A stretch of DNA of 25,078 nucleotides from a virus. The stretch is from the UHGV virus genome UHGV-1753993; one strand, given 5' to 3'. The notes beneath the pieces were generated by a model, which saw nothing but the letters and a program-made list of their open reading frames with translations, made no database searches and was not told the DNA's origin. Within the stretch, counting starts at the first letter, position 1. Every line of letters begins with the position of its first letter. Both the position numbers and the translations under genes were made by a program. This document shows positions 7,919-25,078 of the stretch, in pieces.

Positions 7919-8079
7919 CAATGCAATCTTGCTGGTTAAGCCCATCAGGTCAAGTCACCTACTGTGACTTTGCTGAACATAGCAAAACTGCTGACATATT
8001 GTTGCAAAAGCTCAAACCAGAGTTGTTGACGCATACAATATGCCAGTTAGTCTTGCGCATGACCAGTTGCAGAACTTGA
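7915..8079 (+). CDS. Small ORF (54 aa), not in ORF track
   Basis: ATG overlaps the preceding stop (ATGA); fills an otherwise gene-free gap; found by manual translation. Confidence 0.3.
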   Translation: MTMQSCWLSPSGQVTYCDFAEHSKTADILLQKLKPELLTHTICQLVLRMTSCRT

Positions 8080-8186
8080 GCAATTATGCTACATTCGATA
8101 TTACAGCTGTGGAAGGCACTACGAAATGCACAAAGGCGCAACGTGAAGCAATGTTTGACTTGACAAGGCACTGGCATGAGCAATAA
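8040..8186 (+). CDS. Small ORF (48 aa), not in ORF track
   Basis: Manual translation; ends 15 nt before the next gene; overlaps the 7915-8079 ORF in another frame. Confidence 0.25.
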   Translation: MPVSLAHDQLQNLSNYATFDITAVEGTTKCTKAQREAMFDLTRHWHEQ

Positions 8187-8201
8187 GATACATTATCTGA
8201 T

Positions 8202-8816
8202 ATGAAACATACAACATATGGACTGGGCTACATCCAGTCACCTAAAGATGACAGAGACTTGCGCTTTGACGCAAAAACTGATTTGCCACTTGTGTACAAG
8301 TTGGCTCAACTTCAAGTAGAAGACCAAGGCAGTACATCAATGTGTGCAGCTTACACAGCAGCAACAATGATTGACTGGTGGTCTTCTGTGCTGTCTATGC
8401 AAGGCAAGCTTGACATCAAAGCATTGTATGAGCGTCGTTCAAATAAGCCTCAAGAGGGCATGATTCCGCGTGACGTCTTTAAGCTGCTCAAAGCACAGCC
8501 AATCAAGATGTCAAAGGGCTCAGAACAATCGCCGATAACTGCATACAGACGTTGCTACACAATTGATGAAGTCAAATCTGCTATTGTAGCAAATGGGCCT
8601 GTATTTGTTGGCATGCTCGTAAAAGACATTGAAGCTGAGCATTTCTGGAAAGGCGATGGCAATTTTGGTGGTCATGCAGTGTCAATTGTCGGCTATACAA
8701 AAGACTCATTCATCATCAAGAATAGCTGGGGTATATCTTGGGGTGATTCCGGCTACACTACAATGCCCTTTGAAGATTTTTCAGCAATCATTGAAGCTTG
8801 GACCATTTTGAGATGA
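8202..8816 (+). CDS. Papain-like (C1-family-like) cysteine peptidase
   Basis: Catalytic-triad signatures by eye: QGSTSMCAAYT (Cys), GGHAVSIVGY (His), NSWGISWGDSGY (Asn/Trp); no signal peptide. Confidence 0.65.
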   Translation: MKHTTYGLGYIQSPKDDRDLRFDAKTDLPLVYKLAQLQVEDQGSTSMCAAYTAATMIDWWSSVLSMQGKLDIKALYERRSNKPQEGMIPRDVFKLLKAQPIKMSKGSEQSPITAYRRCYTIDEVKSAIVANGPVFVGMLVKDIEAEHFWKGDGNFGGHAVSIVGYTKDSFIIKNSWGISWGDSGYTTMPFEDFSAIIEAWTILR

Positions 8817-9553
8817 GCAGAGAATCAGAATTGGCTGCAGCAAATGCAATATTGGATGCTGCAGAAGTAAGTGATGCATTAGAAGTCTATAAGCAGTTTG
8901 ACCGAAGCAAACTTGACAAGACACTTGACAAGTGTTCAAAATACGTTGACGAAGTTCGCAAATTGTGCATAGCAGCAGATGTTAAGTCGCCATTTATCGA
9001 TGCTTCAATTGAGATGGAGAAGACGAACATCAATTTGCTTTGCAAACAAGTGTTTTATGCAATGCATGCACTTGATTCAGTATTCGAGCGCATTGATGCA
9101 CAAGGCGGGGGCATGGGTGAGTTTGCGTTTCTCATCAAACTGCAGAATGATGCAATGTCGTTGGTTCAGCAGTATATATCATATTGTCGAACTCTTCCCA
9201 ATGTACTTGCGTCACTCAATAATAATGTTCGAGCAACTCAAGCAGAATTGCAACAAGGCTCTGGTCAATCTGAACAACAGTCAGGCATCAATGGTGAACT
9301 CGTAACTCGTTCAATCGTTGACCTCATCAAAATTGCAGAAAAGCATAACAGCACATTTGAGCAACTCAAAGATGACAATGATGACAATCCACAGCCATTG
9401 TTTGAAGCAGATGATGAAGTTGCAAAACTGCTTGGTGATGACGTAGAACGTTACACTGATGAAAAGACTTATGCTGAAACAATGAAAGCTGAGGGCAAAG
9501 AGTTCAATGCTGAAGCTGAGTTGGCCAAGCAAGCAAAACCTGAAGTGAAATGA
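8813..9553 (+). CDS. Hypothetical acidic protein
   Basis: Track ORF 8798-9553 starts at TTG; ATG at 8813 overlaps the upstream stop (ATGA). Confidence 0.6.
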   Translation: MSRESELAAANAILDAAEVSDALEVYKQFDRSKLDKTLDKCSKYVDEVRKLCIAADVKSPFIDASIEMEKTNINLLCKQVFYAMHALDSVFERIDAQGGGMGEFAFLIKLQNDAMSLVQQYISYCRTLPNVLASLNNNVRATQAELQQGSGQSEQQSGINGELVTRSIVDLIKIAEKHNSTFEQLKDDNDDNPQPLFEADDEVAKLLGDDVERYTDEKTYAETMKAEGKEFNAEAELAKQAKPEVK

Positions 9554-9572
9554 CAGTTGTAAGTTTATATGC

Positions 9573-10696
9573 ATGAGTCGCTACAAGCAAGATACGCCAT
9601 TAACTGGCGCAGCTATTGAGAAAAGAATTGCAGAACTTGAAGCTGAAAGAGATGAATTGTTAAGGGTGACAGAGAATGTTAGATTAGGCAAACATAAGAC
9701 AGCTCATAGTGAAATTGCACGAAAGTACAACTACAAAATTGGGTGCTTAAAAAAGTATGGGTTTGAAAATGCGATGAAATGCACTGCGCTAAAAAAATCA
9801 AGCAATCAATACCAGACGTGCAAATAATGACGTTGATGCAATGATTGCAAAAATGCAAGCAACAAACTTAAAACGTTATGGCCACGCAAATGGCAATGTA
9901 GAAAAAATTACTGCAACTAAAGTACAGCGATTTGGCAATGGCTATGGCAACAAAGCAAAGGCAATTGATACCAAAAAAACGTAAATATGGCAATGCATGG
10001 GGTGACCGCTCAAAAATCTGTGCAACAAATTTAGAACGTTATGGTTATGCAAATGGCAATGTTGCTAAAATGTGTAAAACTAAACGTGCACGATGGGGCA
10101 ACGCGTTTGGCAATTTGACTTTGATTCGTGAACGTTTAGCAGACTTGTATGGCGCTGTATGCCATTTTAGCGTGCGCTCAAAGTCAAAGCCATGTTCAAA
10201 GCTTGAGTTATTTGTGCATGATAAGATATTACATGCTCTTGGCATTAACTTTGAATATTCACATTTAATAGGTGGCAGATTGTATGATTTGCGATATAAT
10301 GACATAGTTATAGAAATTAGCCCAACAATATCGCACAATAGCACGTACAGTTTTGCATATCTAAATAATAGAACACATAATAATGTGCCAATGCATACGC
10401 ATTATCATTTTGATAAGACTCAACTTGCTCTCAAACATGGCTACATATGCATAACAATTTTTGACTGGCATAACTTAAACGACGTTGTGTCAATTGTTGG
10501 TATGCATTTAGCAAAGCTATCAATAAACTCAACAGACTTCGCACTCAATCCGCAGTTGTCAGATGACAAGTCAACAATTCGCAAACACTGGTGTCATTTG
10601 AAGACAAAAGAGCATATTGAAGACTGCGGACAAGATGAGCAAGAGATGATTGACGCTGGTTATGTTGCAGTGTACGATTGCGGTCATGCAAGATAA
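9573..10696 (+). CDS. Repeat-containing protein (five or more units of about 18 aa, T-x-[KL]-x-R-[YFW]-G-x-[AG]-x-G-[NV]), interrupted by +1 frame breaks at two A7 tracts
   Basis: Track ORFs 9573-9827 and 9932-10696 plus an unlisted 9841-9984 ORF; the amino-acid repeat continues across frames 0, 1 and 2, switching at A7 9791-9797 and A7 9973-9979. Confidence 0.5.
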
Positions 10697-10722
10697 GTGC
10701 AAATGATATTCGCATGTTGTAT

Positions 10723-10804
10723 CATATTCATATACAATATGAATATGCATGTTGCACAATACATATACAAATAACAAATAAACTTCTGAAGATTTTCTGA
10801 AGAG
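10723..10804 (+). promoter_or_regulatory. Upstream region of the SSB gene: hairpin (11-bp stem CATATTCATAT / ATATGAATATG, 10723-10747), TGTTGCACAAT motif (10750-10760), direct repeat TTCTGAAGA x2
   Basis: Read directly; function inferred from position only. Confidence 0.35.
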
Positions 10805-10847
10805 TTCATTTCAAACTTTTTGTTAAACTTTCTAAAATTTTATTGCG

Positions 10848-11981
10848 ATGTCACAAATTGAAAATGGACAGACCAGCAATCAGCCTCTGTCAATCTTTGA
10901 TGTCCAGCCGGACAATGTAGCAAGCTTTGCTAAGCCGGAACGTTCTGCAGGACCCGAGTTCTTTAATCCTAAGCCGCAGGATTCGCCAAAGGACAAAGTT
11001 TATCGTGCAGTTATTCGCGTATTGCCGAATTTAGCAGACCCAGCAGTACCGATTTCAATCGTTCGTTATTACTGGTTTGCAACTGGCCATAATCAGGGCT
11101 TCCGCTACAATTCGCCGAGCTCGCCTAATCCGCATCCTGAAAATCCGGAAAATTTGATGAAACCCTACGGTTGGTGTCCCATTTCGGCATTCTACTGGGA
11201 ACTCATCAATACCAAGGATGCTCAGCAGGAAGCACTTGCAAAGCGAGAGTTCAGTATGCAGAGTCAGTACACTTGCCTCGTGCAAATCAAGGCTGATTCA
11301 GTGCACCCTGAGAACGTTGGGAAAGTACTCCCATATCGACTCCCTGCTGCATTGTATAAAAGAATGCTGAGCTCAATGAAGCCGACTGACGAAGACATCC
11401 AGATGGGCGCTCAGCCTATGGACATGTTCCATCCTGTTAAGGGCCATGACATTCTCTTGAAGATTACGCTTAAAGACGTCAATGGCGTTGAAATGCGTGA
11501 CTACGAGACTTCGACGATTTCGCCCAACGTATCGTCGATGCTGCTTGCAGATGGCAGCCTTGTTGACCAGGCGAAGTATGACACTGACCCTGCATACAAG
11601 CAGCAAATCATGCAGCAGATTGTCGACATGCTCAAGGAGTACCCGAATGTCGAAAAGGAGTGGGGCTACCACGAAGCTTCTGATGACATCAAGCGTCAGG
11701 TTAAGATGCGCCTTGCTAACTACAAGGATGTGTCGGATATCTGGCCTGACATTGTCATCAATCCGTCAGCAGCTCAGCAGGCACAGACTACTCAGCCTGC
11801 ACCAGCAGCAGCTCCGGCAGCTGCGCCTGCTACTGCACCAGCAGCTCAGACAGCCATTGACCCGTTTGCAGCAGCTTCAGCACCTGCAGCAGAGCCTGTA
11901 CCTGCAGCAGCTCCAGCAGCAGCGCCTACAGCAGCAACGATGGATGCTGAAACTGAAGCATTCATCAATGGGCTCAAGTAG
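10848..11981 (+). CDS. T4 gp32-like single-stranded DNA-binding protein with a Pro/Ala-rich C-terminal linker
   Basis: Matches to T4 gp32 recalled from memory (AVIRVLPN vs AVIRFLPS; ENVGKVLPYR vs ENEGKVFKYR); distinct codon usage and higher GC than neighbours. Confidence 0.75.
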   Translation: MSQIENGQTSNQPLSIFDVQPDNVASFAKPERSAGPEFFNPKPQDSPKDKVYRAVIRVLPNLADPAVPISIVRYYWFATGHNQGFRYNSPSSPNPHPENPENLMKPYGWCPISAFYWELINTKDAQQEALAKREFSMQSQYTCLVQIKADSVHPENVGKVLPYRLPAALYKRMLSSMKPTDEDIQMGAQPMDMFHPVKGHDILLKITLKDVNGVEMRDYETSTISPNVSSMLLADGSLVDQAKYDTDPAYKQQIMQQIVDMLKEYPNVEKEWGYHEASDDIKRQVKMRLANYKDVSDIWPDIVINPSAAQQAQTTQPAPAAAPAAAPATAPAAQTAIDPFAAASAPAAEPVPAAAPAAAPTAATMDAETEAFINGLK

Positions 11982-12003
11982 CACAAGCGCATCAAAGATG
12001 CTC

Positions 12004-12041
12004 GAGGCTCAGACAGACATTGTTTGTCTGAGCCTCTTTTT
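12004..12041 (+). terminator. Intrinsic terminator: 12-bp stem GAGGCTCAGACA / TGTCTGAGCCTC, 9-nt loop, TTTTT
   Basis: Read directly; 23 nt after the SSB stop codon. Confidence 0.75.
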
Positions 12042-12059
12042 CATTTAACAAGTCATGTC

Positions 12060-13655
12060 ATGAGACTCAAAGTCATAGGCGATTTGCTTCAGATTGTCGA
12101 AGCAAATGATTTGGAAGCCAAGCAATTATACGCTGAAGCTACTGCAGAAGTGCCAAACTTTGTTGCAGCAGCAGTCAATAAGCGCAAAGGGCGCAAAACA
12201 GATTGGAATGGGCAAATTTGCTATGTGTTTAATGGCATATACCTACCATTTGGCTTATGGAAGCGTATTTGGGACTTACAACTGCGTAAGCCAATTCCAT
12301 ACGAAGTCAAGATTGAGGGCCTCATTGACAACTTTGACCGCATTGTGTCGCTTGAAGAGCTTGAGCAATGGTCAGAATGTCTTGATATGCCATTTGACAT
12401 GCGTGACGACCAGCTCAAGTTTATTTTGACTGCTTGCAAATTCAAGAAATGTTGTTTACGCCTTGCGACTTCTTATGGCAAAACAGCTCTTGTTTATGTA
12501 ATTAGTCGCTTCTTAAAAGATAGCAAGAGAATTAATGGCAAGACGCTTATGATTGTGCCCTCGGTGCATCTCGTGTCACAAGCGTTTGACGATATTGTTG
12601 TCAGCTATCAACAAAATGAGTCAGATTTAGCAAACAAGAACTACAAACTCTACAAAATCCATTCAGGTGTTCGCAATGAGTACAAAATGCAAGATGCAGA
12701 TATGGTTGTTGGCACGTATCAAAGTCTTGTCAACATGCCGGCAGATTTTTTCGAACAGTTTGACTTCATTGTAACTGATGAAGCTCATGGTGCGCCTGCA
12801 GCGTCAATTCGTGAAATCTTTAGTCATTGCACAAAAGCTCATTATCGTCTTGGCGTATCTGGTTCATTGCCGCTTGAACATACAGCAGCTCGTTTGACAA
12901 TTGAATCATACATTGGTCCAATACTGGGCACATTTGGCGTAGCTCAAGCACTTGAAAAGAACATTGTGTCTGACTTCGAAATCAAACGAGTAGTCATTGA
13001 GCATTCAGCAGAATATGATGCGCCGTTTGTGCAGTATCTTGAAGAGCATCCTGAAGTGTTTGATAACACTGCAAGACTGCTTCCAGCAGAACAACATCAT
13101 TGCATGAACTACGTCGATGCTAACAAGCTCATTGCAAAAATTATTTGTTCGCTTGACAAAAATGCTCTTGTGCTTTGCAAACGACGAGACCATGTGCAGA
13201 ACATCTATGATGCTTGTCAAACATTCATACAGCAGTCTGGTGTTGACAAGGTTGTTCACATCATTAGAGGTGATGTACCCTTGCATGAACGCAAAGACAT
13301 GCTTGCAATGATGGAAGCAGAGCCTGACAGACACATCATGATTGCAACAACTGGCACATTATCTACAGGTGTATCTGTGCATGCTTGGTTTTACGCTGCA
13401 TTCTTGATGATTGGCAAATCTGACAACGTAACATTGCAGTCAATTGGGCGACTGTTGCGTAAGCATCCACTTAAGCAGAAAGCAATCATTCTTGATATTG
13501 CGCATAAGCTTACAATTCATAGTGACACGCTTGTCAAGCTTCGCAAAGGCTACTGCTACTGCAATTATGATATGCAGCATTTTGCTGCTCGAAAACGAAT
13601 CTATGACGCTGAAAAGATGCCAGTAGATACAAATGTGCAAAAATTCAAGCTTTGA
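12060..13655 (+). CDS. uvsW: UvsW-like SF2 DNA helicase (Walker A TSYGKT, DEAH box VTDEAHG)
   Basis: Helicase motifs read directly; N-terminal W.G.I...LPFGL and later blocks (MIVPS..SQAFDDI, VVGTYQS, LGVSGSL, QSIGRLLRKH) match T4 UvsW as recalled; start re-set from track TTG 12024 to ATG 12060. Confidence 0.8.
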   Translation: MRLKVIGDLLQIVEANDLEAKQLYAEATAEVPNFVAAAVNKRKGRKTDWNGQICYVFNGIYLPFGLWKRIWDLQLRKPIPYEVKIEGLIDNFDRIVSLEELEQWSECLDMPFDMRDDQLKFILTACKFKKCCLRLATSYGKTALVYVISRFLKDSKRINGKTLMIVPSVHLVSQAFDDIVVSYQQNESDLANKNYKLYKIHSGVRNEYKMQDADMVVGTYQSLVNMPADFFEQFDFIVTDEAHGAPAASIREIFSHCTKAHYRLGVSGSLPLEHTAARLTIESYIGPILGTFGVAQALEKNIVSDFEIKRVVIEHSAEYDAPFVQYLEEHPEVFDNTARLLPAEQHHCMNYVDANKLIAKIICSLDKNALVLCKRRDHVQNIYDACQTFIQQSGVDKVVHIIRGDVPLHERKDMLAMMEAEPDRHIMIATTGTLSTGVSVHAWFYAAFLMIGKSDNVTLQSIGRLLRKHPLKQKAIILDIAHKLTIHSDTLVKLRKGYCYCNYDMQHFAARKRIYDAEKMPVDTNVQKFKL

Positions 13656-13796: not shown

Positions 13797-14150
13797 TTGC
13801 TTGTCACAAAGCGAATTCAAGCTGCAGCAAATGCAACACAACAGCCTGCAACAAAAGTTGATTTTGACAGAGCGTCAAATCAGTTTGGCTTAGCATTGAC
13901 TGAGCTGTACAAAGAGCAGGGCATCAAAGCAGTAGATTTCGTAGAACTTGATATCTATAAGCGCATCTTTGCAGCACAAATTGCAAAAGCAATGCGTGCT
14001 GAAGATGTTGACATAGTCAAGTCTGCAAAGAAGCTTGAGCGCATCATGCAGTATGACCTTAAAAAGCTCATCAACGTCAAAGACAAGAACATCAGCAAAG
14101 GCACTGCAAGATTGCTTGAAGCTGTTCTTGCTGCAGAAGATGATGAGTAA
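13797..14150 (+). CDS. Hypothetical protein; no canonical ATG near the 5' end (track start is TTG)
   Basis: Open frame 13764-14150; an in-frame ATG at 13710 is separated from it by a single TAG at 13761-13763. Confidence 0.4.
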   Translation: MLVTKRIQAAANATQQPATKVDFDRASNQFGLALTELYKEQGIKAVDFVELDIYKRIFAAQIAKAMRAEDVDIVKSAKKLERIMQYDLKKLINVKDKNISKGTARLLEAVLAAEDDE

Positions 14151-14194
14151 TGCAAATATACATATATTGTCAACAAACAAACATAAAAAAAGAT

Positions 14195-14512
14195 ATGCTG
14201 CAACTCAAACATAAAGCCGAAATGGCTCGAGCACTTGCAAACAATCCACTCGTTGTAGTGAAGTTCAGTGCGCCATGGTGTGTGCCGTGTCAAGGTTATG
14301 CGCCAATTTTCGAGTCAACTGAAAAGAAATTCAATGGCAAGGTGACATTTGCTGAAGTGAATGTTGAAGAGTGCGATGAACTTGATAGCACTCACAATGT
14401 TCGTTCAGTACCAACGACAATTATCTTTCGTGATTGCATTGAAGTTGGCCGTGCAACTGGTGCATTGTCAGCTATTGCACTTGAACAACTGATTGTCGAC
14501 AATATGCAATAA
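14195..14512 (+). CDS. Thioredoxin
   Basis: Active site WCVPC, cis-Pro loop VPT, about 105 aa; start re-set to ATG 14195 (track start 14150 lies in an AT-rich leader). Confidence 0.85.
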   Translation: MLQLKHKAEMARALANNPLVVVKFSAPWCVPCQGYAPIFESTEKKFNGKVTFAEVNVEECDELDSTHNVRSVPTTIIFRDCIEVGRATGALSAIALEQLIVDNMQ

Positions 14513-14536: not shown

Positions 14537-14971
14537 ATGGGCAAGTCGATATTTGACAATGAATGGCTATCTACGGAACTTGAGCGGTTTGAAATCAAAT
14601 ACGACAAGCTTTCAATCAATGACGACACTGTAGTAGCATCAGCAACATCTACAATAGAACAGTTTTTGCAAAAGTCTTCGTATCACAGGTACATTAGAAT
14701 AAGACTTCGCAAATACAAGTTCATTGAGCCAACAAAGTACAATGAGTGCATCGCAAAATGTGCCGCGTTAACAAAAAGCGCTTTGCAGCTTATCAATGTG
14801 TTTGATGCAATCAACACATACTATGAGCTTGACACAAAGCTTTGTTGGGACCAGTTGTCATACACAAACAAGCTCATCATAGCTAAAGACATGCTTGAAT
14901 CACAGGGTAATGACGCTTTGCTAAAATTTGTTATGCAGCAAAAAGCAGCTAATGACATGCTTGACCAATGA
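14537..14971 (+). CDS. Hypothetical protein (144 aa)
   Basis: Track ORF with ATG start. Confidence 0.6.
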   Translation: MGKSIFDNEWLSTELERFEIKYDKLSINDDTVVASATSTIEQFLQKSSYHRYIRIRLRKYKFIEPTKYNECIAKCAALTKSALQLINVFDAINTYYELDTKLCWDQLSYTNKLIIAKDMLESQGNDALLKFVMQQKAANDMLDQ

Positions 14972-15966
14972 AAGATTCACTGAACAGAGGCTCAGCTGAG
15001 CTGAAATCAGCTCAAGCTGCAATTAAACAGCAAGTCAATGCAAAAGACGTGACATTTCAGCACTTCTTTCGTAATGCATTTATTGGACTGCTGTCTGATT
15101 TGTATGCTCGTCTGAATATGCCGACATACATGCTGAGCACTGGTGACCAACGATATTGGTCGGGCGAACTTGTTGGCAAAGGCTCAAGTCCAGTTGGCAA
15201 TACACCAACAAATTCACTTGAAAATGCATTTGTTGACGCGAAAAACTTTGTTCAAACTGTGCCAAGATGCGTTGTTGAAATAGAGTCGCCTCGAATCAAC
15301 AAACAAGCGCTTGGCATGCAAGATACACAGATTCGTCTGATTGCTACAATTGACAGTGTACCTGTCGCATTGTATAGCACAATGAGACGAATACCAGTAG
15401 ATTTTGCTGTCAATGTGCAAGTATTTTCAACAGATTGGTTAACTGCGCTTGAGACTTACGAGTATTTGCTTAGCAAGCTGTATCAGTTGAATATGTATGG
15501 TTTTGTCTGGGCAGGTACCATGCATGGTGCATCATATGAATTCGATGTGTCTTCTATGGATGCTCAGCATGCAATTGTGCATGGCAAAGAAGACATTGAC
15601 ACAGTCATTAAGCTGCCATTGACACTGCACTTACAATATCCTGCAATCAATTCTGGTGATAACATTTGGGCTGGCGATGACATCATCACAGACTACGAGC
15701 ACAACATTGATATTGATAGTGATGATTCTGCACTTGACTTGAACATCACTTTTGGTGGCAACTATGATGAAGCCAGAATATCATTGCCAAGCAAATCAGG
15801 TTCGGCTAATGCAGGCTCTGCAATGTCTGACAGTAGACTCATAAGCATTGTCGGTTCATCTGGCAATGTTGGTCAAGCTGCTGGTAGTGGCAGCAATGCA
15901 AATCTTGCAAGCGTATCAGATGGCAATACAGGTTGTCAGAATGGCGCATGTCATCTTGAACATTGA
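14968..15966 (+). CDS. Hypothetical protein with Gly/Ser-rich C-terminus (332 aa)
   Basis: Track ORF; ATGA overlap with the upstream gene. Confidence 0.65.
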   Translation: MKDSLNRGSAELKSAQAAIKQQVNAKDVTFQHFFRNAFIGLLSDLYARLNMPTYMLSTGDQRYWSGELVGKGSSPVGNTPTNSLENAFVDAKNFVQTVPRCVVEIESPRINKQALGMQDTQIRLIATIDSVPVALYSTMRRIPVDFAVNVQVFSTDWLTALETYEYLLSKLYQLNMYGFVWAGTMHGASYEFDVSSMDAQHAIVHGKEDIDTVIKLPLTLHLQYPAINSGDNIWAGDDIITDYEHNIDIDSDDSALDLNITFGGNYDEARISLPSKSGSANAGSAMSDSRLISIVGSSGNVGQAAGSGSNANLASVSDGNTGCQNGACHLEH

Positions 15967-17294: not shown

Positions 17295-18677
17295 ATGCAC
17301 AATGATTTGATTATAGCGCAATTAAATGCTTTGCAGCAGCAATATGAAATTGTGTTTGATGTTGATTGCATTGCATGGCTTCGAAACAGATGCTCAACAT
17401 TTATAGGCATTCCACTGCCATATAATGATTACGTTATTTGTGTGCATCCAATTGTGCGACAAACTGTCGTAGTTGACATAACAAATGCAACTGAACACGA
17501 GCTATTTGAATTGGAAGAGTACATTGCAATGATTCATGCATTGTTGCAATCATATGCACGACATCTGCATTCACAACGATGCAACACGGAGTTTGCTGCA
17601 GTAGATGCGCCCTATTCTGCAAAAACACATTTTGTGCCTGTAATACTTAAGCCTGCATATCCTGTACGAACACAAGACAAACCACGACAAGATAAGACAG
17701 ACATTCAAAGTAGAGAATGCTTTGCAATTGCTCGCATCATTGATGCAACAAAGCAGCATCAATACAAGGCGCATCTTATTGTAGATGATGCAGAAGTGCA
17801 TGACCCAAAACTTTTCGACAAAGATGTGCTATGCTGCTCAGTTGACTATGTGCAGCACTCAATTGACAAATATGGTGTGTTGTACATTGTATGCTCAGCA
17901 ATGAATGACTCGATGAGTCAGTCAGTCATCTACAAACAGCACAAGCAACTCATTGAATCATGGAAGGGCGACATTGTATGGCTATGGTATGATTTACGAC
18001 TCGTGCCGCACATTGCAAACTTTAGATTGCGCTGCAAAAAGATGACAGTTGTCACACAAGCACAGAACATGCATAATGCGTTGTCAATGCTGACAGAAAT
18101 CAATGTCAACACAATTCAGCATGCAAGACTGGAAGGCATTCCATTGTATGCATCACATAACGAAAAACGTTTAGCAAAATTGCAATCAGGCAAGTTGACT
18201 ACTGCAATGCCGATGGTTGCTTGGAATGACATGTGTGCTGAACGCAAACAAGAAGTCATTGATTTGCTTGGCTGCGCAGACATCGAAACTCATGTTGTCG
18301 GCAATATCGACATTGATATGCCACATGTCTATGATGGCACAATCAAGTATTTTGACATATTAACATACTTGTCGCAGTTCGACTTTGCATACATTGTGTG
18401 TGAAGAGAATATGAAACAATGCAACGCAATTACATTCAGAGCAACTGAATCAATGCTTGCAGGCTTGCCTTGTATGTACGTGAATAATTGTGTGTGTCCT
18501 GACTTTATCAAGTATCATAAAGTCGCACACATCAAAAATGCCAAGCATTGTGCAGAAGTCTTCAAGTCATTAAGTGTAGATGAACTTGATGAGCTTATGA
18601 CATTACAAGACAACTATCTCATTGAGTTGCATACAAACATTGTAACAGACTTTATCAAAATTATAAACTCACTGTAA
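17295..18677 (+). CDS. Hypothetical protein (460 aa); C-terminal region weakly resembles the GT-B glycosyltransferase nucleotide-sugar-binding motif
   Basis: Track ORF with ATG start; motif ..FRATESMLAGLPCMYV.. by eye only. Confidence 0.6.
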   Translation: MHNDLIIAQLNALQQQYEIVFDVDCIAWLRNRCSTFIGIPLPYNDYVICVHPIVRQTVVVDITNATEHELFELEEYIAMIHALLQSYARHLHSQRCNTEFAAVDAPYSAKTHFVPVILKPAYPVRTQDKPRQDKTDIQSRECFAIARIIDATKQHQYKAHLIVDDAEVHDPKLFDKDVLCCSVDYVQHSIDKYGVLYIVCSAMNDSMSQSVIYKQHKQLIESWKGDIVWLWYDLRLVPHIANFRLRCKKMTVVTQAQNMHNALSMLTEINVNTIQHARLEGIPLYASHNEKRLAKLQSGKLTTAMPMVAWNDMCAERKQEVIDLLGCADIETHVVGNIDIDMPHVYDGTIKYFDILTYLSQFDFAYIVCEENMKQCNAITFRATESMLAGLPCMYVNNCVCPDFIKYHKVAHIKNAKHCAEVFKSLSVDELDELMTLQDNYLIELHTNIVTDFIKIINSL

Positions 18678-18681
18678 GCAT

Positions 18682-19407
18682 ATGAAATGGCTAACTTGGT
18701 CTGAAACAAAGCGGTTTCAACGAAATCTCATATATCTTAAAATGGCTGAGCTTTGGTCATTAAATTCACATGCTCAGCGAGCAAAAGTTGGCGCATTGCT
18801 TGTAAAAGATGGTTGCATAATTTCAGATGGCTATAATGGCATGCCAACTGGTATGTCAAATTGTTGCGAACATGATACTTCAGCAGGCATCAAAACCAAC
18901 AAAGAAGTTTTGCATGCAGAATCAAACGCATTGATGAAGCTGTGCAAATATGGCAATGCGACCGCAAATGACGCAGTGCTGTATGTAACATACAGTCCAT
19001 GCATTGATTGCGCAAAGCTTATTTTGCAAGCAGGCGTTAAGCAAGTGCATTTTGTTGACTTGTATCATCACATAGATGGCTTGCGACTACTTAGTAGTGC
19101 TGGCATTGAGTTATATTGGTACCCAAGAAGCGCAGCAGATTATGAGGTTGCATGCAATCAAGTAGACTTTGATGATGCATTTCTTGCAAAGTGTGTCAAT
19201 ATCGTAGCAGTTAGTGACAATGTAGATGACATTGTGCATTGCAATTATGTGATATGCAATCTTGACGCAGCATTGTCATATGAGAAGATGCCAATGTATG
19301 ACACGTCATATGGTGTCATTGCAAATCACATCATAGATGAAGTACAATATCAACATGTAATAGATAATTGCAAAGCATATGAGCAAACTCTTCATTTTGA
19401 AATTTGA
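18682..19407 (+). CDS. dCMP deaminase-like (zinc-dependent cytidine/deoxycytidylate deaminase fold)
   Basis: Signature HAESNAL ... PCIDCAKLI read directly. Confidence 0.7.
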   Translation: MKWLTWSETKRFQRNLIYLKMAELWSLNSHAQRAKVGALLVKDGCIISDGYNGMPTGMSNCCEHDTSAGIKTNKEVLHAESNALMKLCKYGNATANDAVLYVTYSPCIDCAKLILQAGVKQVHFVDLYHHIDGLRLLSSAGIELYWYPRSAADYEVACNQVDFDDAFLAKCVNIVAVSDNVDDIVHCNYVICNLDAALSYEKMPMYDTSYGVIANHIIDEVQYQHVIDNCKAYEQTLHFEI

Positions 19408-20542
19408 CACATGTGTGCGTTCAGACATACAGCATCTTAAACATACAGAACCCATCGCATTTGCAGGGTTTGTGCAGACAATGTTTGATGCTGTGTATGT
19501 GTTTGGTGACCCTGAGAACAAACATGCAATACTTGATGAGCTTGTGCATGATAACGTGCATATCATCAATAACATACATGCATGGCAAGATATGCTGAAG
19601 TGCACAAAATCAGACGATTGCGCAATATTCTGGCAGGGCTCAAAGGCTGCTCTTGAACATTGCTCAGAATTTCAGCAAGATGTTCTGTGGAATGCATTCA
19701 AAGCATGGTGTTTGTCAAATGCTCGCAAATTTACGCTAACAACTGATTTGCGATTTGATTTTGACAAAGAGTGCACATTGACAAAGCGATTGCACAACTA
19801 CAAAGAGTACTTAGAATCACAAAAAGACAACATTACACATCTGTGTCAACATAAAAATCTCAAGTATGCTTGGCTTGATGAGTCTCAATGTGTGTTTGCA
19901 CCATTGCAAATCATTGCAGCAGTCAATGCATTGAAGCTTCAATATATAGAGCCAAGATTGCTTAAACGACAAGCAACAATGCAAAATGCAATTGAAGCTC
20001 ATGTGCGTAGCTTTGCTGACATAAAGCAGCAATATGCATGCTGTGCAAGTTGTGCAGGTTTCACATATCTTGACGAGTATCGTAGAAGCGTGATTGAACA
20101 ATTTGTCATACATATGCGTGATACATGTCTCATAACATCGTATATTGATGACACAATTTTGTCTGCGGTTAAATCAGCAGCACCAAACTTTACACTTAAA
20201 TACAAAGTCGCATATGACGCAATGCCTCATGTAATATCGAGGTCCGCGTACAATCTTGTAGTTGGTGATTCATTGTATGTGCAAGCAGGCTTGCTGCCAA
20301 ATCGATGGGTTGAAGGCGTACTTGCAAATTGCTGCAACATACTTGTAGATTATAAGCCAATTACCCTATTTGCTGACATTGTAGGCTTCGATGACTACGC
20401 GACATTTGCAACACTTAATAGCAAAACATGCGTACGCACTGCGCCCACAAATTTTGATGATTGCAAACAAGCACAGCAAAAAGCTCTTGCAGCAATGATT
20501 GTGCAGTGTTACACTATTCTTGAACAAACATTCAAATCATGA
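19379..20542 (+). CDS. Hypothetical protein (387 aa)
   Basis: Track ORF with ATG start; overlaps the upstream gene by 29 nt. Confidence 0.6.
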   Translation: MSKLFILKFDTCVRSDIQHLKHTEPIAFAGFVQTMFDAVYVFGDPENKHAILDELVHDNVHIINNIHAWQDMLKCTKSDDCAIFWQGSKAALEHCSEFQQDVLWNAFKAWCLSNARKFTLTTDLRFDFDKECTLTKRLHNYKEYLESQKDNITHLCQHKNLKYAWLDESQCVFAPLQIIAAVNALKLQYIEPRLLKRQATMQNAIEAHVRSFADIKQQYACCASCAGFTYLDEYRRSVIEQFVIHMRDTCLITSYIDDTILSAVKSAAPNFTLKYKVAYDAMPHVISRSAYNLVVGDSLYVQAGLLPNRWVEGVLANCCNILVDYKPITLFADIVGFDDYATFATLNSKTCVRTAPTNFDDCKQAQQKALAAMIVQCYTILEQTFKS

Positions 20543-22095
20543 GAACACATATAATTACTCAAACTGGCTACATAGACTTTTTCAATTCATTGACTTGGAA
20601 AAGTGCAGCAATGTTTGAACGAGCAAACAAAGATGACTTATTCATTGTGGTAGGCTTTGTGCCACAGATGAAAGATGTCGCAGATTGCTTGACTACATCA
20701 GGTCATCATGTCAAATATGTTGATGTGTCAGATTTTGCTCAATGTCGCATTGCTGACATTATGAAGCGTCTTGATATGTCAATGACATCTTGCAATATGA
20801 GCTACATTGCAACATTTAATATATTCAATGGCGCATGCAATTCATTTCAGCAGGCAGAACTTGATACATTTTCTGCATATTGCAAGACATTTGGTACTGC
20901 ATCAGTCAAACGTGATTTGCCGCTAATTGACGCAGCAGGCTCAGTCTACAAAGCACTCATGTATGTAGTGTATGAGATGCTGTCAGTCATTATGCAGTAC
21001 AATATTGCATTGAATGCTCGCAAGACTAATGACAAACAACAAGGCACAGTCATAAACAACTTTGTCGAAGACCCATTGCAGCACAAGCTCAATTACATTG
21101 ACTATCGCTATTCAGGACCATATGAAAGCGCATTTAGTGCATCAAAGATATTCAAAGTGCAACATTGGTACTTTCATGATTGCAATAATGTCAAAAAGCT
21201 TGGTCTTGAATACAATTCTGCATATGTATATGATGTTACAGCAGAACAAGATGCTATTGCATATTATGGATGGTGTCCATCACAGCAATACTGGTATTTG
21301 CATGGCAAAACTTGGAATGATATTGAAGTAACATTCGATGACAAGCGACTGAATTTTGTATTTGCATTGACAAATACTTGGCGAGACAAAACTGAACGCA
21401 CAGAACTCATCAACAAACTCATGCATCTGCACAATCAAGATGCAATTGACAAGGGTATTGTGTTCAGATTTTTCAGCAGAGATAAACAACAGCAGTCAAT
21501 GTCAGACAAGTTGCTGCCATATGACACATACCTTGAACTCATCAAGCATAGCAGATTCACATTGATTGTGCCGTCATATGATGCAAACTGTTTTAGTTTG
21601 CGTAGATTCTGTGAAAGCATTGTGCTTGGCTGTGTTCCACTTGTGCACAACTCATGCAAACTCTATATGTTTGACAGATGGCCACAGTTCAAACAGTTTG
21701 TCATTAAGAAGCTCATGATTAGCGATGATGACTTGCAGCATCTTGAAGACATTGTTCAGCCATATAGACATACACAATTGTTAAAAGAGTTGTGGCACAC
21801 TGATTTCATTCAGCAATATACGGGTGACTTTGTGTATGATATTGCATTGCATCTTGCATATATCAATAAAGATGTGCCAATCAAGAAGTCTTGTGACAAT
21901 TGCGACAATACACTTTCACATGAGCGCTGTGTAATTTGTGAAGCAAACAACTTTATGAGTCATGCATGGTCATGTTCATATTGCAAGTTCTGCAAGTCTG
22001 ATATGTCATGCGCACTTGATGCAGACGATGGCTCAGCCGCATGTTGCAATGGTGACAGCTTTGTGTTGAAAGAGCCATTCGTAGAAGTGCAATGA
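20539..22095 (+). CDS. Putative glycosyltransferase (exostosin/GT47-like motif) with Cys-rich C-terminal tail
   Basis: Motif YDTYLELIKHSRFTLIVPSYDANCFSLRRFCESIVLGCVPLV resembles the F[CT]LxP.G...R..E.L..GC[IV]P signature; C-terminal CDNCDN..CVIC..CSYCKFC cluster; ATGA overlap at start. Confidence 0.6.
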   Translation: MRTHIITQTGYIDFFNSLTWKSAAMFERANKDDLFIVVGFVPQMKDVADCLTTSGHHVKYVDVSDFAQCRIADIMKRLDMSMTSCNMSYIATFNIFNGACNSFQQAELDTFSAYCKTFGTASVKRDLPLIDAAGSVYKALMYVVYEMLSVIMQYNIALNARKTNDKQQGTVINNFVEDPLQHKLNYIDYRYSGPYESAFSASKIFKVQHWYFHDCNNVKKLGLEYNSAYVYDVTAEQDAIAYYGWCPSQQYWYLHGKTWNDIEVTFDDKRLNFVFALTNTWRDKTERTELINKLMHLHNQDAIDKGIVFRFFSRDKQQQSMSDKLLPYDTYLELIKHSRFTLIVPSYDANCFSLRRFCESIVLGCVPLVHNSCKLYMFDRWPQFKQFVIKKLMISDDDLQHLEDIVQPYRHTQLLKELWHTDFIQQYTGDFVYDIALHLAYINKDVPIKKSCDNCDNTLSHERCVICEANNFMSHAWSCSYCKFCKSDMSCALDADDGSAACCNGDSFVLKEPFVEVQ

Positions 22096-22140: not shown

Positions 22141-22713
22141 ATGATAGCGATATTTGAAGGTGTAGAAGCTTCAGGCAAAACAACACTCATCAATGAATTG
22201 ATGAAGTGGCGCCCATGGTTTATCAATTGCAAACGAACATCTCGTTCTTGGTGGCAGCAGCATGAGTCAGGTGATGACCCAATGCCCGAACCTTGGGACC
22301 TCAATGAAGCGTTCTTTTATGATTGGCGCTTCTTCTTAGAGTTCATTGGAAATGACTCTCAAGGCTTTGGCAAAGCAACATTTTTGTGTGACCGTTCGTT
22401 CATCACACATCAAATCTTCAACACAACGCTTTACAAAGAGTTGCACACTGATAAGCATCAAGCATTCTTTGAAGCATATGAAAAGAAGCTTGCAACATTG
22501 CCGCACGTAGTGTTCTTATGCAAGCGTGATGTTGTGCCAGATTTTGTTGATAACTTTTGCGGTGATGTCAACATTGATGTCAGCAAACGCAATGAAATGA
22601 TTGCTGCATATGATGAGTGGCGAAAGAACTCACCATTGCATATTGTCGAAATCGACAACAATGCAAGTCTGCAAGACAATGTGCTAAAATGCTTAGCTGA
22701 ACTTGGTGCATGA
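22141..22713 (+). CDS. P-loop nucleoside-monophosphate kinase, thymidylate-kinase-like
   Basis: Walker A EGVEASGKTT at the N-terminus and a DRS motif (LCDRSF) by eye. Confidence 0.6.
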   Translation: MIAIFEGVEASGKTTLINELMKWRPWFINCKRTSRSWWQQHESGDDPMPEPWDLNEAFFYDWRFFLEFIGNDSQGFGKATFLCDRSFITHQIFNTTLYKELHTDKHQAFFEAYEKKLATLPHVVFLCKRDVVPDFVDNFCGDVNIDVSKRNEMIAAYDEWRKNSPLHIVEIDNNASLQDNVLKCLAELGA

Positions 22714-23202: not shown

Positions 23203-23934
23203 ATGTGTATGAAAGCACAATCAAATATCAAAAGCGGCATAGATGCACTTAGTAAAGTGCGTGTAGCCAACACATCTATTGTCAATAAACACTGGTATGA
23301 CAAGCTTAGCAATTCTATTGCAGACTTTCTGACAAGTGTGTTGCTCATTATGATTGTGACTATCACATTTCTTATTGGCATCACTACGCATATTTATGCA
23401 GTATTTGGTGACTATTGGCTTGCGATAGGCTATCAATTCGTGGTGTTGCTTACGTCAGTCAACTCTGATTTGTTGCCAAAATACAAGAACATTCCACTGA
23501 TTGCAGTGTTTATGTCATGCTTTACATGCGTGTTCGTGTTTTTGAGCTTTGATGGTCACTTATCAACTGGCATCATGCTTCTTGTCAATGCATTGAAGTC
23601 ACTTGCCATAGCACTTGTCGAATTCATCTTTGCGTATTTGTTCGTAGCTCGTAACAATCGCACAAAAGCAGAACAAGCAGGCATTCAGTTTGACTTTGAG
23701 GGCAATGTCATTGAGCTGCATGCACAACAAGATGCTGCACAAGTTGAAGACACCGAAGTGTTACCAGCAGACAATGAGCCTATACATGTTGAAGAAGAGC
23801 AGCCAACTGTAATCGAACCAGTTTGGCAGCCAAAACGCTGTCATTGTGGTTTTGTTGCAGACTCTGAAGATGCTTGGAATGACCACATTGCTAACTGCGA
23901 TGTCTACAAATTTTTTGAATCATCTGCAAAATGA
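23203..23934 (+). CDS. Multi-pass membrane protein (about 4 TM) with acidic, Cys/His-containing C-terminal domain
   Basis: Track ORF with ATG start; hydrophobic segments by eye; C-terminal C-x-C ... H ... C. Confidence 0.65.
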   Translation: MCMKAQSNIKSGIDALSKVRVANTSIVNKHWYDKLSNSIADFLTSVLLIMIVTITFLIGITTHIYAVFGDYWLAIGYQFVVLLTSVNSDLLPKYKNIPLIAVFMSCFTCVFVFLSFDGHLSTGIMLLVNALKSLAIALVEFIFAYLFVARNNRTKAEQAGIQFDFEGNVIELHAQQDAAQVEDTEVLPADNEPIHVEEEQPTVIEPVWQPKRCHCGFVADSEDAWNDHIANCDVYKFFESSAK

Positions 23935-25078
23935 GGCTCTTCATACACAAGCTTGATTGCATAATCGACCCATACTCAAACAACTTGGTATCACAAGAAC
24001 CCGTGCTGTTTGCAAAAGCACTTGTGTCATTTCCAGAGTCTCCGTTCAGTCAAGTCATTCTTATTGCAAATCAACGAAAGCATCTTGCAAGCATCAATGG
24101 GCATGACATCATTGCTGCAACAGTAGAAGACATATTGAGTTTGCAATTCAACATCTGTTCAAATGATGTTTGGATTTTGTGGGGCGGCTGGATTGATTTG
24201 CTAAATATGCTGCCTCGACCTCAAGCAGAAACAGTTGTTAAGCTGCATGCTATGTGGCGAATGTCTACTGCAGCAAGAATGACAATTTGTACTGACATGC
24301 GATTCCCATTTAAGCGTGTCAACTTTGTGCATGCAGGCAGAGTTGAGCTACATGGCGTGTATGATGAGCCAGTACTTGAACTTAGCCAGTGCATGAATTT
24401 GTCAAATGAGCATTCAGTGTTCAACAATGTCAAATGGCTGCCATTGTTTATGCTGCCAACATACAGCAATGTTGCGATAGAGCCTCGTCATATTGGCGCA
24501 AAAACAGTAGACTTGATATATGCTACAAGAGATTGGCATATGCTATCTGACAGTCGCATAAACAAAGTCATTCGATACTATGTAGATTCAGGTTGTCGCT
24601 CAAGTTTTCTTGGTGAGCACAAACATACAGGCAACTTGACAAGTAGATTGTCTGATGCACAAACGCAACTACTACAGTCAAATTGCTCATTTGATTTTAG
24701 TGTGCCATTCTATAGTGTGCCATATGCAATGTCATATGCAGCAGCACACATTGCTATCGGTGACCAACAATATGAGCAATATGGGTTGATACCAAATCGT
24801 GTTGGTGAAGCAATTGTTGCACGAATTGCGACTTTTGTTGATTGCGCAGTTGACAAAGACAGACGATTATTTGCAGATGATGCGTATTTGAGCAAAGTGT
24901 CATATGTGCATTCTGCAGAACAAGTACAGCAACGCATTGCAGCATTCAAACAGCACCCAGACATTTATGCAGCATTTTGTGAACGACAAGCAGCATATTT
25001 GAAAACTCGATATGACATTGCAAAGCACTTTTTTGCAGTGACATACGACTTCATAAATAAACACAAACATCAACATAA
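23931..25078 (+). CDS. Hypothetical protein, 3'-partial (at least 382 aa; runs off the window end); absent from ORF track
   Basis: Manual translation from ATG 23931 (ATGA overlap with upstream stop) shows no stop codon through 25078; the listed minus-strand ORFs here are antisense to it. Confidence 0.6.
   Translation, partial: MRLFIHKLDCIIDPYSNNLVSQEPVLFAKALVSFPESPFSQVILIANQRKHLASINGHDIIAATVEDILSLQFNICSNDVWILWGGWIDLLNMLPRPQAETVVKLHAMWRMSTAARMTICTDMRFPFKRVNFVHAGRVELHGVYDEPVLELSQCMNLSNEHSVFNNVKWLPLFMLPTYSNVAIEPRHIGAKTVDLIYATRDWHMLSDSRINKVIRYYVDSGCRSSFLGEHKHTGNLTSRLSDAQTQLLQSNCSFDFSVPFYSVPYAMSYAAAHIAIGDQQYEQYGLIPNRVGEAIVARIATFVDCAVDKDRRLFADDAYLSKVSYVHSAEQVQQRIAAFKQHPDIYAAFCERQAAYLKTRYDIAKHFFAVTYDFINKHKHQH

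Follow-up and report, generated by a model that had tools for sequence, protein, structure and literature searches.

The window analysed here is the whole of a 25,078-nucleotide stretch of DNA, the virus genome UHGV-1753993, and an open frame on its plus strand runs off the right-hand end. This frame, the genes around it and the reading frames opposite it are as follows:

18682–19407, plus strand: dCMP deaminase (PF00383, 3.4e-21; phrog_174, 1.1e-44)
20539–22095, plus strand: putative 518-aa glycosyltransferase (GT) of GT-B type, GT47/Exostosin-like, with a Pfam match below the gathering score
22141–22713, plus strand: 190-aa P-loop protein with a thymidylate-kinase-like N-terminus, the match being to the P-loop region only
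23203–23934, plus strand: 243-aa conserved protein, upstream of the open frame and coupled to it, containing hydrophobic segments and a variable acidic linker; the C-x-C…H…C motif at the C-terminus is invariant
23931–23934, plus strand: ATGA start/stop overlap, with ATG 23931–23933 lying on TGA 23932–23934 of ORF 23203–23934
23931–25078, plus strand: 391-codon gene for a GT-B enzyme of the T4 beta-glucosyltransferase family, of which codons 1–382 and 2 nt of codon 383 lie in the window
24221–24469, minus strand: antisense shadow ORF, 82 aa, TTG start; lacks its start in relatives L004, L002 and L003 and is interrupted by a stop in L004 and L003, its own stop not being conserved
24710–24964, minus strand: antisense shadow ORF, 84 aa; interrupted by 1–2 stops in L004, L002 and L003 and lacking its start in the last two
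24754–24945, minus strand: antisense shadow ORF, 63 aa; 2–6 internal stops in L004, L002 and L003

Translation of 23931–25078 yields 382 stop-free codons (23931–25076) and a leftover 'AA'. The original prediction, made from the letters of the window, had described an uninterrupted frame of at least 382 codons reaching the window edge, and re-translation bears this out. The closest upstream in-frame stop is the TGA at 23916, making the ATG at 23931 the earliest possible start. An alternative start at TTG 23985 was dropped because the N-terminus from Met1 is kept in all homologues and supplies the Rossmann fold with its first beta-strand. The overlap of this ATG with the upstream stop, which had also been pointed out, was seen in the window and likewise in all the relatives compared (the junction …AAAATGA… is present in L001, L007, L008 and L004) and suggests translational coupling to the upstream gene. 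The mechanical ORF list leaves out ORFs that run off either end of the source, and this accounts for the absence of the gene from it. The prediction had likewise blamed the lack of a stop inside the window and proposed looking for one downstream; in three strains that are 96.3–96.7% identical over the gene, the sequence continues as AAC TG. GAC ATT TG. CCA TGC AAA CTT TGA, which adds nine codons (NCDICPCKL) before a TGA stop and gives a protein of 391 aa as read from these strains. Of this real 391-codon gene, which belongs to an uncultured tailed phage, the window contains 98%, counted from the start codon. Scans of its surroundings for promoters and terminators gave no more candidates than shuffled sequence did, and no tRNAs were found in the 25-kb window.

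Purifying selection acts on this coding frame. Compared with a 96% identical strain, differences fall 8/2/32 over the three codon positions, with 34 synonymous and 7 non-synonymous codons. The homology search proposed for the 382-aa fragment recovered full-length homologues of 391–413 aa at 98, 68, 44, 44 and 33% identity, and these have the N-terminus M-x-L-x-I-H-K-x-D in common. The sole point in favor of a chance open frame or pseudogene, with one of the minus-strand ORFs as the real gene, is the absence of a stop within the window, and we give this explanation a negligible probability. Given the base composition of the region, 382 open codons would arise by chance with a probability of 1.6e-11; over 2000 shuffles of the region the mean length of the longest open run was 57 codons and no shuffle gave more than 167, and the remaining five frames are open for no more than 49–88 codons. 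Full-length copies are kept in at least seven independent contigs, and the selection on the frame also speaks against a chance origin. The three minus-strand ORFs are in the mechanical list at exactly the coordinates first reported for them, and their earlier description as antisense shadows holds: they are broken in relatives at 68% and 44% identity, whereas the sense frame is open at these positions in all of the relatives compared. The substitution pattern over codon positions, the shuffles and the disrupted antisense ORFs led us to reject both a chance ORF and an antisense gene. For annotation, the missing entry in the ORF track is an artefact of the window edge that conceals a real gene, and the three minus-strand ORFs should be discarded.

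The encoded protein is a two-domain GT-B enzyme and a divergent member, or subfamily, of the T4 DNA beta-glucosyltransferase (BGT) family that falls outside the curated Pfam model. No model reached any threshold in Pfam and NCBIfam scans of the protein. PF09198, a 167-position model of the N-terminal domain, gave no match to P0001, P0003, P0005 and P0006 even at E<=10, and its gathering score was not reached. Single-sequence phmmer against the PDB returned only a spurious ZnuB match (E 1.9), tblastn of the protein against phages gave four weak matches only, and none of 50,697 phage records was matched when the whole window was searched by megablast. The clade is small: a set of 1.84 billion proteins, clustered at 50% identity, contains just 5 representatives of it below 1e-30. 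A PHROG match was obtained to phrog_7922, 'beta-glucosyltransferase' (1.2e-8), and T4 BGT was the sole PDB match of the clade profile (E 1.7e-7). HHalign aligned the protein with T4 BGT over residues 117–357, the Asp100 loop included, at a probability of 95.4% (E 1.7e-8). Intermediate sequences connect the clade to PF09198 members; when 83 relatives were aligned (alignment A3), 56 of them matched PF09198, and their joint profile matched 1bgt over its full length at 8.7e-82. Identity to T4 BGT is 17–19%, and the N-terminal domain is recognisable by its fold and Asp loop only.

Structural comparison gave the same assignment. The AF2 model had a pLDDT of 96 and a pTM of 0.94, and the first six Foldseek matches in the PDB were all T4 BGT (E 8.6e-15 to 1.3e-12, TMt 0.70–0.76), followed by a generic GT-B at E 7e-8. 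A structural search of BFVD produced the same picture. These results extend the T4 BGT family to a divergent clade that is missed by current Pfam and NCBIfam models. Clade members have a near-neutral pI of 6.4–8.1 as compared to 9.05 for the basic T4 BGT, making the protein less obviously a DNA binder than the T4 enzyme.

Within the gene, the following elements correspond to functional sites of T4 BGT or are specific to the clade:

23997–23999, plus strand: Glu23 codon, aligned to T4 BGT Glu22 ('PSSETIY'), invariant in the clade
24288–24314, plus strand: C-T-D-M-R-F-P-F-K motif, residues 120–128, invariant in the clade
24516–24557, plus strand: I-Y-A-T-R-D-W-H-M-L-S-D-S-R loop, residues 196–209, where the C-terminal nucleotide-sugar domain begins
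24783–24809, plus strand: G-L-I-P-N-R-V-G-E motif, residues 285–293, invariant in the clade and nearly so in A3
25062–25078, plus strand: start of a clade-specific His/Cys tail, H378-K-H-Q-H382 and 2 nt of N383

In both HHalign and HMMER alignments, Asp122 (24294–24296) falls on Asp100 of T4 BGT within its F-T-D-I-R-L-P-F segment; we take Asp100 to be the catalytic base, from the D100A entry 1nzd and the established literature. Arg209 aligns with T4 Arg195, and Arg290 and Glu293 align with Arg269 and Glu272, the contacts of the T4 enzyme to the UDP phosphate and ribose. Asp122, Arg209, Arg290 and Glu293 are nearly invariant across the 83-sequence superfamily alignment. T4 Arg191, which contacts the beta-phosphate, aligns with Leu205 in the new protein; the clade-invariant Arg200 sits in a three-residue insertion region beside this leucine and, judging from the alignment, may substitute for Arg191.

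T4 BGT itself (gene b-gt; PDB 1bgt, 1qkj, 1nzd; PF09198) is a two-domain GT-B protein of 351 aa, and both it and the 391-aa protein described here are encoded in a phage nucleotide-metabolism neighbourhood linked to a gp42-type hydroxymethylase. The two differ in that the N-terminal domain of the new protein has extra beta-hairpins (E50–64 and E130–139), its phosphate loop has the three-residue insertion with Leu in place of Arg191, and it ends in a His/Cys tail, T4 BGT containing no Cys at all. The tail, completed by C384 and C387 just beyond the window edge, follows the pattern H-x3-H-x-C-x2-C and occurs in 6 of 7 clade members; P0006, gp180 of Sphingomonas jumbo phage PAU and T4 BGT lack it. 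We infer that it binds zinc; its pLDDT in the model is low (52–64).

The gene is part of a conserved phage cluster for nucleotide metabolism and DNA modification, and is translationally coupled to its neighbours. The order gp32-like SSB, UvsW-like helicase, thioredoxin, dCMP deaminase, GT-like protein, kinase-like protein, membrane protein, BGT-like gene, second GT-like gene and SbcCD is kept down to relatives of 44% identity, and the gene for the 243-aa protein precedes the BGT-like gene in all relatives. The 190-aa P-loop protein is a weak candidate, by sequence, for the nucleotide kinase that would act on the modified dNMP. The 518-aa GT-like protein is a paralogue of a 410-aa protein whose gene follows the BGT-like gene in relatives; their PF03016 scores of 25.3 and 21.6 bits lie below the cutoff of 33.4, and the family profile found nothing in the PDB. 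A model of this GT47-like family built from database homologues had a pLDDT of 57, and its Foldseek matches were all GT-B with TM values of just 0.3–0.4, which is only a hint of such a fold. The family was also compared with PAU gp171 and with the BGT-like protein, and is unrelated to either. A conserved 387-aa protein had no PDB, Pfam, PHROG or NCBIfam match, and no dCTPase was identified in the 25-kb window.

A homologue of thymidylate synthase (TS) lies 7 kb downstream of the BGT-like gene in L001, a strain of approximately 95% identity (positions 15023–15916 of that contig). The linkage was seen in this one relative contig, outside the window, the other contigs ending before that point. 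The L001 protein has the catalytic Cys, carries L143D and N177D and retains D169, like T4 gp42, a combination that serves as the criterion for dCMP hydroxymethylase (PMC13326640). The D169N signature of a 5-hydroxy-dCMP synthase is absent from the L001 protein, which has Asp at 169, and present in PAU gp182, which has Asn. In T4 and the distantly related phage PAU, the BGT-like gene also adjoins or lies near a TS homologue. In the Enterococcus phage Planchet, no TS homologue was found within 7 kb of the BGT-like gene, and in the Ralstonia phage RsoM2USA the context of the BGT-like gene is unannotated.

The nearest protein in an isolated phage is PAU gp180, an unannotated hypothetical protein with 21% identity over 73% of the query by tblastn; of the two best structural matches in BFVD, one is an entry of 385 aa, which fits its length. 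PAU gp180 has the T-D-x-R-x-P and L-P-N-R-x-x-E motifs found here, and its module has a similar order (GT, thymidylate kinase, SSB, UvsW helicase, BGT-like gene, another gene, TS homologue). The PAU system differs in the D169N substitution of its TS homologue, in the dTDP-sugar genes of its cluster and in the lack of the His/Cys tail. The T4 DNA alpha-glucosyltransferase (PDB 1y6f) also has a GT-B fold and acts on 5-hydroxymethylcytosine (5-hmC) in DNA, but it ranked just 43rd in the structural search (E 1.9e-5), is a retaining enzyme and has no motifs in common with the new protein. The arabinosyl- and hexosyl-transferase clusters of RB69, DLP3 and RL38J1 follow the same logic as the cluster here, combining a TS homologue, a thymidylate-kinase-like kinase, several GT-B enzymes and a HAD sugar-phosphate phosphatase; however, their transferases resemble the GT4-type proteins BshA, MshA and sucrose-phosphate synthase rather than T4 BGT, and their TS homologues carry D169N whereas the one linked here does not (PMC13326640).

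The best explanation of these data, and one we hold to be probably correct, is that the product of this T4 BGT-family gene glycosylates 5-hmC in the phage DNA. The protein has the fold and catalytic motifs of T4 BGT, and it is by analogy with that enzyme that we infer DNA to be its acceptor and 5-hmC the base it modifies, as well as the beta stereochemistry and the identity of the sugar. According to this model, cytosine derived from dCTP would be replaced in the phage by 5-hmC through the action of a gp42-type dCMP hydroxymethylase and a nucleotide kinase. After replication the enzyme would bind duplex DNA and flip out the modified base, with Asp122 of the T-D-x-R-x-P-F loop activating the 5-CH2OH group as a general base, and Arg209, Arg290 and Glu293 of the C-terminal domain holding the diphosphate and ribose of the nucleotide-sugar. 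The sugar would be transferred with inversion, and the modified DNA would resist host nucleases. DNA glycosylation sets the sensitivity of phages to restriction, CRISPR and type IV systems, and the uncultured lineage can be flagged as a probable carrier of glycosylated 5-hmC. T4 BGT is also a laboratory reagent for mapping 5-hmC, and a relative with other sugar or sequence-context preferences could be useful.

Other acceptors need to be weighed against this explanation. With the same fold and chemistry the enzyme could act on a different base in DNA, either 5-hydroxycytosine, as in the RB69, DLP3 and RL38J1 pathways, or 5-hydroxymethyluracil. The location of PAU gp180 two genes from a TS homologue with the 5-hydroxy-dCMP synthase signature indicates that BGT-like enzymes may serve other hydroxylated pyrimidines, and the dCMP deaminase of the cluster supplies dUMP. 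However, a dCMP deaminase is also encoded by T4, and the TS homologue linked to the clade, matching T4 gp42 at D169, N177D and L143D, predicts 5-hm-dCMP rather than 5-ho-dCMP or hm-dUMP; we consider another base improbable. The presence of up to three GT-like genes in the cluster, the lack of conservation of T4 Arg191 in the donor site and the non-basic character of the protein would fit a second-step transferase that acts on an already glycosylated base, the GT47-like paralogues performing the first step. Such a role is quite unlikely, because the clade strictly keeps the base-proximal T-D-x-R-x-P-F loop and Glu23, both features of T4 BGT, a first-step enzyme, and the second-step transferases known from T-even phages adopt a GT-A fold instead (PMC13216743).

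The acceptor might also not be DNA at all but a virion protein, a host envelope glycan or a small molecule, with the coupled membrane protein as a possible partner. The translational coupling to that conserved protein and the near-neutral pI are compatible with this alternative, as is the great diversity of acceptors used by GT-B enzymes. By both profile and structure, however, the nearest proteins are the DNA-modifying BGTs, seven orders of magnitude ahead of other GT-B enzymes, and the gene belongs to a replication and nucleotide-metabolism module rather than to the structural or lysis genes, leaving a non-DNA acceptor with little likelihood.

A more elaborate version of 5-hmC glycosylation is offered tentatively, as a possibility that we favor less than the simple one. 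The gene might encode the base-proximal transferase of an undescribed, multi-step hypermodification of 5-hmC in a new uncultured and possibly large phage lineage. Together with the two GT47-like paralogues, the enzyme could build an oligosaccharide or place an unusual sugar instead of a simple beta-glucose, using a donor to whose synthesis the phage would contribute a KdsC-like sugar-phosphate phosphatase fusion. The enzymes could be organised by the zinc-knuckle tail and by the coupled membrane protein, which has a Zn-like motif of its own. The two GT47-like paralogues are without relatives in isolated phages, and the backbone genes of the lineage are approximately 30% identical to those of any annotated phage.

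Re-translation of the + strand from ATG 23931 to the window edge at 25078 yielded 382 sense codons, two leftover bases (AA), and no stop, consistent with the original observation that a long uninterrupted frame was missing from the ORF track. The proposed ATGA overlap is also present, formed by ATG 23931 and the TGA with which the upstream ORF 23203-23934 terminates. The closest upstream in-frame stop is at 23916, so ATG 23931 is the first start available. Given the base frequencies of the region (A.31, C.20, G.21, T.28), 6.3% of codons should be stops, and the probability of 382 open codons by chance is therefore only 1.6e-11. The longest open run in 2000 shuffles averaged 57 codons, with a maximum of 167, and the remaining five frames of the region are open for at most 49-88 codons. 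We consider a chance ORF to be refuted, its probability being negligible.

A search of 5.8 billion proteins with the encoded protein recovered five full-length homologues of 391-413 aa (98, 68, 44, 44, and 33% identity), all sharing with it the N-terminus M-x-L-x-I-H-K-x-D. Contigs L001, L007, and L008, from near-identical strains, are 96.3-96.7% identical to the window over the gene and approximately 95% identical over the shared 8-15 kb. Past the last base of the window, all three read N-C-D-I-C-P-C-K-L and then TGA; these nine additional codons indicate a gene of 391 codons, of which 25 nt of coding sequence and the stop are missing from the window. By its own statement, the ORF-listing tool leaves out ORFs extending beyond the source, which accounts for the absence of this frame from a track that contains three short minus-strand ORFs internal to it, and bears out the suggestion that it was omitted because no stop occurs inside the window. 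In the three strains the ATG of the downstream gene lies within the last 13 nt of the gene, so that overlaps chain it to its neighbours on both sides. The 42 nucleotide differences from L001 fall 8/2/32 at codon positions 1/2/3, with 34 synonymous and 7 non-synonymous codon changes, a pattern characteristic of purifying selection acting on this frame. At the homologous positions of relatives with 68% and 44% identity, the minus-strand ORFs (24221-24469, 24710-24964, and 24754-24945) have lost their start, contain 1-6 internal stops, or both, and the sense frame is open in every relative. These ORFs are antisense shadows, as had been proposed.

The window corresponds to a phage module for replication and nucleotide metabolism with its genes almost all on the + strand, and gene order is retained in relatives as distant as 44% identity of the encoded protein. 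The genes in the window include:
8202-8816, peptidase-like
10848-11981, gp32-type SSB
12024-13655, UvsW-like helicase
14150-14512, thioredoxin
18682-19407, +, dCMP deaminase
19379-20542, +, 387-aa unknown
20539-22095, +, 518-aa protein, GT47/Exostosin matches below threshold
22141-22713, +, 190-aa P-loop, thymidylate-kinase-like protein
23203-23934, +, conserved 243-aa protein, with hydrophobic segments and an invariant C-x-C…H…C terminus
23931-25078, +, the gene described here
After this gene, L001 contains:
7948-9180, 410-aa protein, paralogous to that of 518 aa (30% identity, E 7e-49)
9602-13528, fused SbcD-SbcC-like nuclease, 1308 aa
13904-15001, 365-aa protein whose N-domain is KdsC-like (HAD sugar-phosphate phosphatase)
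after the 365-aa protein gene, 297-aa thymidylate synthase (TS) homologue

The L001 TS homologue was aligned with T4 dCMP hydroxymethylase (gp42) and with E. coli ThyA (PDB 1aob_A, verified identical). The catalytic Cys is present, and ThyA positions 143, 169 (retained), and 177 are all Asp, exactly as in T4 gp42. Under published criteria, L143D/E indicates hydroxymethylation, N177D a dCMP substrate, and D169N the 5-hydroxy-dCMP synthases (PMC13326640), and on the basis of these residues the enzyme is predicted to make 5-hm-dCMP. T4 gene 42 adjoins b-gt, and in Sphingomonas jumbo phage PAU the gene for BGT-like gp180 is two genes from the TS homologue, with a similar module order. According to surveys covering BGT homologues (PMC13216743) and hypermodification clusters (PMC13326640), clusters of this kind are being found widely.

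Pfam and NCBIfam scans and a single-sequence PDB search with the protein gave no family match. More sensitive methods agreed on a single family. Among PHROGs, phrog_7922 ('beta-glucosyltransferase') matched residues 189-361 (1.2e-8). When a profile from six sequences of its clade was compared with the whole PDB, the sole match was T4 DNA beta-glucosyltransferase (BGT; 1.7e-7), and HHalign of the clade profile against the authentic T4 b-gt product (from NC_000866) gave a probability of 95.4% (E 1.7e-8) over residues 117-357. When 1.84 billion cluster representatives were scanned exhaustively with HMMER, just 5 proteins scored below 1e-30, alongside approximately 200 weaker relatives, the shared part being mostly the C-terminal domain. 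Pfam PF09198 (T4-Gluco-transf) was matched by 56 of the 83 aligned full-length relatives, and their joint profile matched 1bgt end to end (8.7e-82). The AlphaFold2 model computed from the alignment of these 83 relatives is very confident (pLDDT 96, pTM 0.94). Its six top PDB structural matches are all T4 BGT (E 8.6e-15 to 1.3e-12, target TM 0.70-0.76), followed by generic GT-B enzymes from 7e-8, with T4 alpha-GT only at rank 43. A viral structure library agreed, its top three including entries of 385 aa and 351 aa, lengths that match PAU gp180 and T4 BGT, respectively. The protein is a member of the T4 BGT structural and evolutionary family. Because the curated Pfam model of that family, tested on the protein itself, gave no match, we would class it as a divergent subfamily that lacks annotation.

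In the alignments, C-T-D122-M-R-F-P-F corresponds to F-T-D100-I-R-L-P-F of T4 BGT, Glu23 to Glu22, Arg209 to Arg195, and Arg290 and Glu293 (in G-L-I-P-N-R-V-G-E) to Arg269 and Glu272 (in I-T-L-R-V-W-E). The roles of the T4 residues are those given in the established structural literature, in which D100, changed to Ala in PDB 1nzd, is the general base of T4 BGT. In the 83-sequence superfamily alignment, conservation of D122, R209, R290, and E293 is 90% or higher. The proteins differ in that T4 BGT has Arg191 where ours has Leu205, beside a 3-residue insertion with a clade-invariant T-R200-D-W; the model has extra hairpins in the N-terminal domain; and the clade is near-neutral (pI 6.4-8.1), whereas T4 BGT has a pI of 9.05. 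A C-terminal H-x3-H-x-C-x2-C tail is found in six of the seven clade members but is missing from the seventh (P0006), PAU gp180, and T4 BGT, which contains zero cysteines. The tail is modeled with low confidence, and the spacing of its four His/Cys ligands points to a possible zinc knuckle.

That BGT-type enzymes glycosylate 5-hmC is textbook knowledge, and the best-supported reading, one we regard as likely, is that the gene encodes a post-replicative DNA glycosyltransferase acting like T4 BGT on 5-hmC. Asp122 would act as base in the transfer to 5-hmC, with the nucleotide sugar held by Arg209, Arg290, and Glu293. A sugar other than simple glucose is conceivable in view of the KdsC-like phosphatase fusion and the two additional putative GT-B enzymes. 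A different modified base as acceptor is unlikely, and there is only a slim chance of a second-step role in which sugar is added to sugar. A non-DNA acceptor, argued for only by the neutral pI of the protein and by the membrane protein coupled to it upstream, is similarly improbable. More novel, and less likely than not, is a hypermodification of hmC that is itself new and proceeds in several steps, with GT families not described before and a BGT bearing a Zn tail.

The 518-aa and 410-aa paralogues flank the region of the gene. Their Pfam matches (GT47/Exostosin, Glyco_trans_1_2) are below threshold, the AlphaFold2 model of the paralogue family reaches a pLDDT of only 57, and its structural matches are all GT-B enzymes at a TM of just 0.3-0.4; the GT assignment is thus weak. 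Both contain very conserved motifs (N-F-x-E-D-P-L-Q-H-K-L and P-S-Y-D-x-N-C-F-S-L-R-R-F), and essentially no relatives were found among 50,697 annotated phages. They probably represent a new GT-B family, for which the structure model is poor. The 365-aa gene, directly upstream of the hydroxymethylase homologue and approximately 6 kb past the window end, is also found at L007 20491- and L008 13813-. Residues 6-140 of its product resemble KdsC-type HAD phosphatases (KDO-8-P / KDN-9-P), matching TIGR01670 below cutoff (1.8e-9) and PDB KdsC entries at 1.7e-4 to 1.5e-3; the remaining C-terminal domain of approximately 220 aa is unassigned. This protein hints at synthesis of part of the sugar donor by the phage itself. 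No complete NDP-sugar pathway was recognised.

The 243-aa protein, which had no family match, contains an acidic linker of variable sequence and ends in an invariant C-x-C-x12-H-x3-C motif, so that Zn-like Cys/His motifs are found at the C-termini of both this protein and the glycosyltransferase. In relatives its gene is always upstream of the glycosyltransferase gene, and the ATGA overlap suggests that the two are translationally coupled. Three conserved proteins of the module were unmatched in Pfam, PHROGs, NCBIfam, and PDB sequences: 17295-18677 (+, 460 aa), 19379-20542 (+, 387 aa), and 14968-15966 (+, 332 aa). Of these, the 387-aa gene probably belongs to the same pathway as the dCMP deaminase and GT47-like genes, since it overlaps each of them. 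The fused nuclease joins an SbcD/Mre11-like metallophosphoesterase to an SbcC/Rad50-like ATPase in one protein of 1308-1311 aa (phrog_35725, 7e-112), also encoded at L007 16200-20126 and, in a more distant relative, at L003 4415-8350; the T4 counterparts are two separate proteins, gp47 and gp46. Sizeable minus-strand ORFs are confined to the first 5 kb or so of the window (1207-1665, 1945-2574, and 4595-5296; 152, 209, and 233 aa) and had no PHROG match.

In PAU (NC_019521), gp182 (L005 11177-11884) is annotated 'thymidylate synthase', and gp180 is at 8791-9948. At ThyA positions 143/169/177 gp182 has Glu/Asn/Asp, and thus carries the D169N signature diagnostic for 5-hydroxy-dCMP synthases (PMC13326640). 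The surrounding cluster contains a BGT-like gene, another GT, and dTDP-sugar (rhamnose-pathway-like) genes, and heavy modification of PAU DNA has been reported (PMC7824862). From these observations, PAU DNA may carry a glycosylated 5-hydroxycytosine that a BGT-family enzyme helps to install.

The phage is novel, with no megablast match among 50,697 phage records. No Shine-Dalgarno-like purine tract was present in the 25 nt upstream of any of 23 + strand gene starts (e.g. 5417, 5751, 7556, 17295, 22141), which suggests a host with SD-independent initiation, such as a member of the Bacteroidota. The leaders are A/T-rich, often reading …aaaac… or …ctacaaca ATG. The helicase of the window shares at most approximately 31% identity with its counterparts in huge uncultured phages and in PAU, Chryseobacterium phage MA9V-2, and Tenacibaculum phage pT24; its closest named relatives include Chryseobacterium and Tenacibaculum phages.
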